From an uncultured Eubacteriales bacterium (GTDB lineage: Bacteria; Acidobacteriota; Aminicenantia; Aminicenantales; Aminicenantaceae): 64,000 bases of DNA. The notes beneath the pieces were generated by a model that did not search any database, was not told the origin of the DNA, and saw only the letters and a program-made list of their open reading frames with translations. Of the stretch, positions 56,392 to 56,645 are shown piece after piece. The stretch spans positions 22,020 through 86,019 of the forward strand of contig CAZUXT010000002.1 of the NCBI GenBank assembly GCA_964624145.1, written 5' to 3'. The stretch's first letter is position 1. The number at the start of each line of letters is the position of its first letter. The position numbers and the translations under genes are program-made.

Positions 56392-56645
56392 CATTTTTTA
56401 CCTTACAGGCAAGCCGATATGAAATTCAGATATGGACTATGCTCCCTTCAGATTTTTAACGCCATTCTCCTTCATTTTTCTCGGCGCTTGCGTAACTCCC
56501 CCCGTCCGTGGGTCAGACATACTCAGCGTCCGGCTTCGCCGGATGCCCTCGAAAAGCCTCATCCGAAGGCTAAATCTTCAATGTCGCCACGTCCACACCT
56601 GAATTTCATTAAGTTTAAGCAACCTCGGCTTGTTCATCATACAGG
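56392..56645. ncRNA. Candidate structured RNA / repeat element, copy 2
   Basis: Paralog of 52284-52540. Core rod 56421-56607, hairpin 56526-56546, and an identical 27-mer AACTCCCCCCGTCCGTGGGTCAGACAT at 56494-56520. Confidence 0.55.

Follow-up and report, generated by a model that had tools for sequence, protein, structure and literature searches.

The 64,000-nt stretch of contig CAZUXT010000002.1 analysed here, referred to as the window, holds only two copies of a non-coding element, which lie in the same orientation and are 84% identical to each other. The element is shown below to be a transposable element of the miniature inverted-repeat type (MITE), i.e., a small non-coding, non-autonomous DNA transposon of Aminicenantes-type bacteria with a full length of ~380 bp. 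As a MITE it is of an ordinary kind, but it carries an unusual passenger, a large conserved fold without Rfam match that forms on the strand called minus in window coordinates.

Copy 1 is preceded, in order, by ispF, gltX and a gene similar to Glt symporters (minus strand). A SpoU methylase, an ECF sigma factor with an anti-sigma factor, ybjQ and the gene of a 479-aa protein without Pfam domain lie between the copies, and a DUF6600 gene followed by a MacB-like permease lies 3' of copy 2. The genes around the two copies are housekeeping genes. Copy 2 starts directly after the stop codon of the 479-aa gene; it has neither the L-end inverted repeat nor the A/T-rich module and keeps only the R-end. 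The features of both copies are as follows, with helices of the fold labelled P0 to P8.

52159-52540, minus strand: copy 1, full-length family-1 MITE of 382 bp with a degenerate target duplication
52159-52171, minus strand: L-end terminal inverted repeat of copy 1, CCTGACCTATTCA
52172-52295, minus strand: optional A/T-rich module of copy 1, between A7-TGGCGAT and ATCGCCA-T7; missing from copy 2 and from the ~288-bp size class
52317-52502, minus strand: structured core of copy 1, covariance model match of 200 bits
52527-52540, minus strand: R-end terminal inverted repeat of copy 1, plus strand GTTCATCATCAAGG
56392-56645, minus strand: copy 2, family-1 MITE truncated on the left; aligns with copy 1 and 20 other copies
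56410-56417, minus strand: 3' strand of the outer helix P0 of copy 2, partner 56625-56632
56420-56437, minus strand: 3' strand of the closing helix P1 of copy 2, partner 56591-56608; double changes across families in 13 of 14 pairs
56424-56608, minus strand: structured core of copy 2, P1 to P8, covariance model match of 203.3 bits, E 4e-46
56494-56520, minus strand: 27-mer making up most of hairpin arm P8 of copy 2, with stems CCC/GGG, UCU/GGA and GUA/UAC and loop ACGGACG
56529-56543, minus strand: P6 hairpin of copy 2, UCCGGC-GAA-GCCGGA; 6 of 6 pairs covary among 103 copies
56591-56608, minus strand: 5' strand of the closing helix P1 of copy 2, partner 56420-56437
56632-56645, minus strand: R-end terminal inverted repeat of copy 2, plus strand GTTCATCATACAGG
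56646-56649, no strand: TTAA target-site flank of copy 2, from the flank profile of 170 insertion sites

A dispersed repeat with target duplications

Related loci were fetched from other genomes and metagenomes and are labelled L007, L009 and so on. The terminal inverted repeats of the element measure 13-14 bp (CCTGRNNTATTCA), and CCTG(A/G)NNTATTCA bounds both ends of 72 complete elements. A perfect 4-bp target duplication is present in 30 of these 72, compared with 11.4 expected and a maximum of 19 when the right flanks were shuffled among elements 2000 times. Sixteen of the perfect duplications are TTAA and 14 are other tetramers (ATAA, TAAA, CTAT, TTAG, TGAA and others), which are not explained by a fixed end encoded by the element. 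When 170 distinct flanks were profiled, the four positions -4 to -1, reading T-T-A-A, were the only informative ones. The target duplication of copy 1 has decayed, with one of four positions still matching. Element lengths range from 48 to 441 bp, with modes at ~253, ~288 (no A/T-rich module) and ~380 bp (full length) and a tail of internal-deletion derivatives down to 48-54 bp.

Scanning a right-end pattern against 185,579 species-representative genomes returned 69 stretches, all but one of them from seven metagenome-assembled genomes (MAGs) of Aminicenantes/Acidobacteriota; the exception, L017 (Saprospiraceae), is a chance match to the end pattern. A hand count of the listing gave 25, 18, 10, 6, 5, 5 and 1 matches per MAG, many of them at contig ends, i.e., at least 25 in the top MAG. 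Genome and metagenome scans together place the element at well over 150 loci. The metagenome hits in L140 and L174 were discarded as chance 22-mer matches inside high-GC sequence in which the other features of the element are absent. A phage association was likewise rejected: a single viral-contig 22-mer match was not a covariance model match, leaving no occurrence in viral contigs.

L007 and L008, where the 479-aa protein is 85% identical to that of the window, lack the element at either window site, yet the L007 genome carries at least 18 copies of the element elsewhere. In L009 (80% identical) site 2 is filled and site 1 is empty. The more distant L013 (53%) has a longer version with a foreign interior upstream of the DUF6600 gene, and L010 (55%) retains only a 55-nt right-end remnant. 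Coding of a small protein was ruled out, as an indel puts the two window copies into different frames and a candidate ATG reads ATCTG in many other copies. Taken together, inverted repeats, target duplications, copy number, empty sites and the lack of coding identify the element as a MITE. General properties of bacterial MITEs have been reviewed, including transcripts predicted to form long stem-loops (PMC2229807); in the literature on Aminicenantes we found no paper describing mobile repeats or RNA motifs. A TTAA-targeting MITE family is now documented in this uncultivated lineage.

A large covarying fold in the interior of the element

On the minus strand, a module of ~185-230 nt forms a long irregular rod (P0 to P5b). 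The rod contains four tandem G·A motifs and ends in a three-way junction, from which the hairpins P6 and P7-P8 project. The fold was derived from 50 representatives less than 93% identical to each other (alignment A5). Read 5' to 3' on the minus strand, it begins with P1 and P2, followed by P3, which contains a tandem G·A that is Watson-Crick in some copies, and P4. After P4 comes a 6x6 purine loop, UGAUGA/GAAGAA. The sequence of P5 is subfamily-specific and complementary in every case, and P5b adds another tandem G·A; then follow the three-way junction, hairpin P6, and P7 leading to P8. In copy 2, P6 (56529-56543, minus strand) reads GCGAAGC on the folding strand, and GNA triloops are found in most copies.

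Among the 50 representatives, double changes were seen in 40 of 63 pairs, amounting to 253 cells vs. 59.5 ± 7.4 after shuffling and at most 74 when partners were slid by 1-3 columns. A covariance model built from this alignment matches the window exactly twice, both times on the minus strand and with 203 and 200 bits. When 103 distinct metagenome copies were aligned to the model, double changes appeared in 39 of 62 pairs (430 cells vs. 136 ± 11). Variation is concentrated in P5, P6, P7 and the 3' strand of P1, where it is compensated, and among 18 canonical copies the compensatory changes separate subfamilies. The outer helix P0, which begins 14 nt from the R terminus, also covaries: it is formed by alignment columns 15-22 with 233-240, and at 16/239 eight sequences have A-U and seven have G-C. 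The fold itself, beyond the sequence, is thus maintained by selection, and the description of the element in the sequence-only reading as conserved, non-coding and structured was borne out.

In a search of Rfam 15 at gathering score, the sole match in the window was a tRNA at 38408-38479. Relaxing the threshold to E up to 10 for both copies, and to E up to 1 for four divergent relatives, returned only weak matches, far below threshold, to unrelated eukaryotic and viral families. A large fold without Rfam match is now defined by 62 pairs, about 39 of them covarying.

The folding strand

The sequence-only reading had left the strand undecided and listed clues for both. Over the supported pairs of the 103 copies, 467 cells are G·U and 67 are A·C in the minus-strand reading, and therefore the minus strand is the folding strand. 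Folding energies favour the same strand. Copy 2 as RNA reached -92.2 kcal/mol on the minus strand (z -5.0) and -68.5 on the plus strand (z -3.9), and both values beat all of 200 dinucleotide-preserving shuffles made per strand. For copy 1 the minus strand gave -91.2 kcal/mol (z -5.4), with none of 200 shuffles as good, vs. -60.2 on the plus strand (z -1.9), where 8 of 200 were as good. The gain over shuffled sequence is thus clear for both strands of copy 2 and for the minus strand of copy 1, and weaker for the plus strand of copy 1. RNAalifold with 18 canonical copies yielded -66.7 kcal/mol for the minus and -47.1 for the plus strand.

The clue first cited in favour of the minus strand was correct. 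A56430/C56598 and A56432/C56596 are A-C on plus and G-U on minus, and the same positions (columns 11/181 and 13/179) are G-C or A-U elsewhere. The opposing clue, G56528/T56544, is present in the sequence, but lies outside the supported fold, in which the complement of G56528 pairs in P7 (C-G in 48 of 50). The strand question is settled: the minus strand folds.

A 27-mer had been singled out as the only long invariant stretch outside the rod, and as an unpaired apical block. It is indeed identical at 52388-52414 and 56494-56520 and found nowhere else in the window. However, it is folded as the distal hairpin arm P8, whose closing pair covaries (U-A in 62 copies, C-G in 33), and it is no more conserved than P3, P4 or the GUUAA junction. 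In 24 distinct copies retrieved via the end pattern, a set fetched without reference to the 27-mer and hence unbiased for it, 17 of its 27 positions are invariant and the mean identity is 0.96; in the same copies P3 averages 0.995, P4 0.99-1.00 and the GUUAA junction 0.98. The refuting case named in the sequence-only reading, a 27-mer that belongs to a wider DNA-level repeat without the rod, applies in part: the element is dispersed at many loci, but the 27-mer travels with the rod and not alone.

Pairing constraint at the copy 2 locus

Copy 2 and its counterpart in L009 have an identical truncated left boundary and are therefore orthologous. They are 88.5% identical, while fourfold-degenerate sites of the adjacent gene are 65% identical. 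Eleven pairs of the structure have changed between the two; pairing is kept in 8 of them if the minus strand is read, and in 3 if the plus strand is read. Identity above the neutral level together with the kept pairs argues that copy 2, truncated and presumably immobile, evolves under a pairing constraint; gene conversion from other copies may have contributed to the pattern.

These data also bear on whether the fold could be a mere by-product, namely an imperfect palindrome made of two fused transposon ends in which arm-to-arm conversion or template-switch correction mimics compensation. MITEs in general fold as long stem-loops (PMC2229807), and the outer helices P0 and P1 are arm-to-arm repeats, as this explanation would have it. 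It is contradicted by the covariation of the local hairpins P6, P7 and P8 and of the asymmetric P4/P5 helices, and by the conserved, strongly one-sided G·U pairs, which a strand-neutral correction of DNA would erase. It also conflicts with the orthologous copy being 11.5% diverged compared with 35% at fourfold sites. We consider a by-product highly improbable.

The core in other contexts

More than 116 loci were found when metagenomes were scanned with a 27-mer-derived pattern, and most of these loci are the same MITE. At some of them the core is closed by wholly different, still complementary helices, as in L118 (GATAAATCTGAGGGTATGGAT / ATCCATACCCACAGATTTATC) and further in L122, L149, L157, L143 and L170. 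GC-richer diverged homologues with compensated hairpins are present in L107, L161 and L195, and cores without recognisable inverted repeats persist with their helices compensated. Constraint on the fold persists even where a copy is truncated and immobile or has lost its transposon ends. As a side observation, the P3/P4 segment recurs as an inverted copy (ATTTTCAGGCTAAATCCC), or a shared motif TATTCAGGTNTTTTCAGG is present, ~70-90 nt upstream of the core in L161 (~4340-4420) and L107 (~1760-1850). Such a segment may reflect a partial inverted duplication or offer an alternative partner for pairing.

A second MITE family has the ends GCAAGAATCAGGT, and its ordinary copies are ~155 nt long and lack the core. 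Its loci are the following.

L118 786-936: second-family element
L163 201-351 and 6637-6788: second-family elements
L170 6241-6392: second-family element
L196 1936-2236: second-family element

Two copies of this family, in L196 and in L118 around 8600-8860, contain the core, and the foreign insert present in place of the core in L013 (~8260-8420) and L075 is similar to the interior of this family. The elements therefore exchange modules, and the core is independent of its vehicle.

How the fold may act

The sequence-only reading had proposed a stand-alone gene for a trans-acting small RNA (sRNA) in each copy, with either an anti-Shine-Dalgarno function on the plus strand or a role as a CsrA/RsmA-type sponge on the minus strand. 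The minus strand does have the invariant hairpin loop ACGGACG and several GGGAG/GGAG runs, and conservation at the orthologous locus exceeds the neutral rate. The anti-Shine-Dalgarno version needs the plus strand and is ruled out by the 467 G·U vs. 67 A·C cells. As to the sponge, a single GGA is invariantly placed in a loop, the one within ACGGACG; the other GGA/GGGAG runs fall into internal loops or stems and vary between copies. No homologue of csrA or hfq was found in the window or in 1.39 Mb of sampled related loci, a partial sample that makes this a weak argument, and our data neither support nor exclude the protein-sponge idea. No promoter signal was seen upstream of the 5' side of the RNA across 170 independent flanks, consensus scans revealed no conserved sigma-70-type promoter, hybrid or internal, and a terminator scan predicted no terminator-like site, intrinsic terminators included, within either copy. 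The many copies, with their inverted repeats and target duplications, show that the element has spread by transposition. We regard sRNA genes as very unlikely. What had appeared as a private sRNA pair is reclassified as a transposable repeat, and the question of its strand is answered.

The joint explanation that we favour, and hold to be probable, is a MITE with a selected minus-strand fold that acts as RNA. A DDE transposase supplied in trans would cut and paste the element, and read-through transcription of the minus strand would yield the fold in its active form, as RNA. It could then serve as a protein-recognition platform, either to the benefit of the element or co-opted at some loci, with the P8 loop ACGGACG, the P3/P4 junction and the G·A loops as likely recognition surfaces. 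An action as RNA is favoured because the constraint is found in an immobile copy and in copies without ends, and because conserved junctions combined with covarying stems are typical of functional RNAs. If the fold acts as RNA, it represents a new family of mobile structured RNAs.

Several observations weigh against this explanation. The lack of a promoter signal in the flanks counts here as well, and with P0 beginning only 14 nt from the terminus, a transcript from an internal promoter could not contain the whole fold. Orientation was scored for 157 model matches: tandem contexts comprise 19 co-directional and 16 antisense cases, and two mixed contexts 25 vs. 21, i.e., there is no preference, which argues against a cis role dependent on co-transcription. 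An orientation bias in a first, smaller sample (43 vs. 20) had come mainly from divergent (12) vs. convergent (3) settings and vanished with the 157 matches. The strand that folds at copy 2 runs antisense to both adjoining genes. The motifs GCGAAGC and tandem G·A, which are stable in DNA, leave room for a role as single-stranded DNA. Searches of 1.39 Mb of related DNA turned up neither an autonomous element nor a transposase. Finally, the query of the metagenome scan was derived from the 27-mer, whose invariance among those loci is partly by construction.

The most serious alternative, though in our view unlikely, is that the minus strand folds as single-stranded DNA during transposition or replication and that the mobilising enzyme or a host factor needs this shape. 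A logic of this kind would parallel REPIN/RAYT elements and integron attC sites. The compensatory differences separate spreading subfamilies and distinct MITE families, which is the level where selection for mobility acts, and neither a promoter nor an orientation rule is seen. The fold stops no more than 14 nt short of the terminus, and pairing is also possible between the two inverted repeats. With DNA parameters the minus strand of copy 2 again folds better (-41.6 kcal/mol, z -4.2, vs. -34.5, z -3.6, for plus), and either strand beats all of its 200 shuffles. The GCGAAGC of P6, the sequence of an exceptionally stable DNA mini-hairpin, and the four tandem G·A motifs are of types unusually stable in DNA. 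On the other hand, inverted repeats and true target duplications indicate a double-strand cut-and-paste DDE mechanism, and we know of no such mechanism that needs internal single-strand folding. Moreover, cores without recognisable inverted repeats persist with compensated helices, and the immobile truncated copy 2 is still under pairing constraint. If the fold acted as DNA, a cut-and-paste transposon dependent on an internal single-strand structure would be unusual as well.

Two further readings concern the core. That the core is a functional RNA carried through Aminicenantes genomes by different MITE vehicles, e.g., as a cofactor, decoy or regulator of a TTAA-specific transposase or of another protein of the host or of a mobile element, or as a ribozyme, seems distinctly doubtful. 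Least probable of all we judge an RNA with an activity of its own linked to mobile DNA, be it that it assists or guides, as a cofactor, a transposase or recombinase supplied in trans, or that it cleaves itself as a ribozyme and so processes read-through transcripts. One core shared by two MITE families with unrelated ends, and highly conserved junctions and loops next to covarying peripheral stems, would fit such an RNA. HEARO RNA offers a precedent as a mobile structured RNA of unassigned role that was later shown to be the guide of IscB. In contrast to this expectation, no recurrent protein gene lies within 3 kb of ~160 model matches, no variable unpaired guide-like segment was seen, flanks are informative at TTAA only, and searches with E up to 10 gave no match to an Rfam 15 ribozyme or omega-RNA family.

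Genes and other features near the copies

The 479-aa protein (54940-56379) has only 18 homologues among 5.8 billion proteins. It is also encoded on JGI sediment metagenome contigs, and the only named source of a homologue is a MAG labelled Candidatus Aminicenantes; the protein looks lineage-restricted. Between ybjQ and the 479-aa gene, L007, L009, L010 and L013 carry an open reading frame (ORF) of 220 aa, which is absent from the window, where the interval comprises 168 nt (54772-54939). At L007 4939-4951 a lone 13-mer resembling the inverted repeat, CCTGGATTATTCA, abuts the -35 box (TTGATA) of a promoter-like TTGATA-17-TACAAT of the 479-aa gene. Its counterpart in the window (54887-54898) retains just ATTCATTTGATA. 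An old element end may thus have been built into the promoter of this gene.

Upstream of the DUF6600 gene the window has a promoter-like TTGCGG-17-TATATT (56676-56704) that is conserved in L009 and also in L007, where the element is missing, which indicates that the gene is independent of the element for its promoter. A riboswitch or leader for the symporter or DUF6600 gene was considered and ruled out, as the same sites are element-free in relatives and the promoter-like site of the DUF6600 gene lies outside the element.

Two observations concern more distant parts of the window. Long A/G-rich low-complexity repeats at 40137-42390 probably encode part of a protein rich in lysine and glutamate. 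A direct repeat of 46 nt (60801-60846 and 62368-62413), its copies 85% identical and spaced by 1567 bp, lies beside the gene of a MacB/FtsX-type permease and may be a shared regulatory site.

Candidate mobilising transposase

IS1380 elements have ends starting with CC and a duplication of 4-5 bp, and piggyBac elements use TTAA. ISEcp1 was the sole IS1380 member compared, with its ends read from a copy in a plasmid record: the left inverted repeat is CCTAGATTCTACGT and the right one, reverse-complemented, CCTAAATTCCACGT. The R-end of the MITE, CCTGGATTATTCAC, agrees with the left repeat of ISEcp1 at 9 of 14 positions (CCT-GATT-T-C) and with the right repeat at 7 of 14. IS1380 transposases have been taken as the prokaryotic outgroup of the TTAA-specific piggyBac superfamily (PMC10813416). 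The end sequence and the 4-bp duplication are suggestive of a mobilisation of the IS1380/piggyBac type.

A tblastn search with ISEcp1 TnpA, a distant query for a partial sample, gave no match at E up to 1 in the 1.39 Mb. Inverted-repeat pairs enclosing long ORFs revealed no autonomous partner, by a method that proved too noisy, and clustering of the neighbouring ORFs yielded no recurrent protein within 3 kb of the ~160 covariance model matches.

Comparison with known systems

The element resembles ISEcp1 of the IS1380 family in ends that begin with CCT.GATT, and IS1380 and the related eukaryotic piggyBac superfamily in a short A/T-rich target duplication. Unlike these, the MITE copies have no transposase gene inside or nearby, and the link consists of end similarity and duplication length only.

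Correia/NEMIS elements of Neisseria, ERIC/IRU of enterobacteria and RUP of S. pneumoniae are likewise short, non-coding and intergenic, with terminal inverted repeats, target duplications, many copies per genome, presumed mobilisation in trans and transcripts predicted to form long stem-loops (PMC2229807). The present element is two to three times longer (~380 bp vs. 100-200 bp) and has a TTAA target with a 4-bp duplication, whereas theirs is TA. With 62 supported pairs and a three-way junction, and with its junctions and loops conserved, its interior is not a simple stem. In addition, its core is common to a second MITE family with other ends, and it shows no orientation-dependent relation to genes.

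REPINs (RAYT) and the IS200/IS605-derived PATEs resemble it as multi-copy intergenic hairpin repeats with compensatory pairing in which one strand matters. They have no such terminal inverted repeats or target duplication, while here 30 of 72 elements have perfect 4-bp duplications, 14 of them non-TTAA. An identity with REPINs or IS200/IS605 PATEs is ruled out by the matching non-consensus duplications (ATAA, TAAA, TGAA, CTAT, TTAG) at both ends.

As in HEARO/IscB omega-RNA and IS110 bridge RNA, a large structured module supported by covariation travels with mobile DNA. In contrast to these systems, the present module has no adjacent nuclease or recombinase gene, no Rfam match and no visible variable guide segment, and the element has DDE-type ends and duplications. 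Membership in the omega-RNA or bridge RNA classes was rejected, since no IscB, TnpB or IS110-type association and no recurrent protein family within 3 kb of the cores was found. Should MITE vehicles indeed carry a functional RNA core, it would form a new class of mobile structured RNA, comparable to HEARO before the link to IscB was made.

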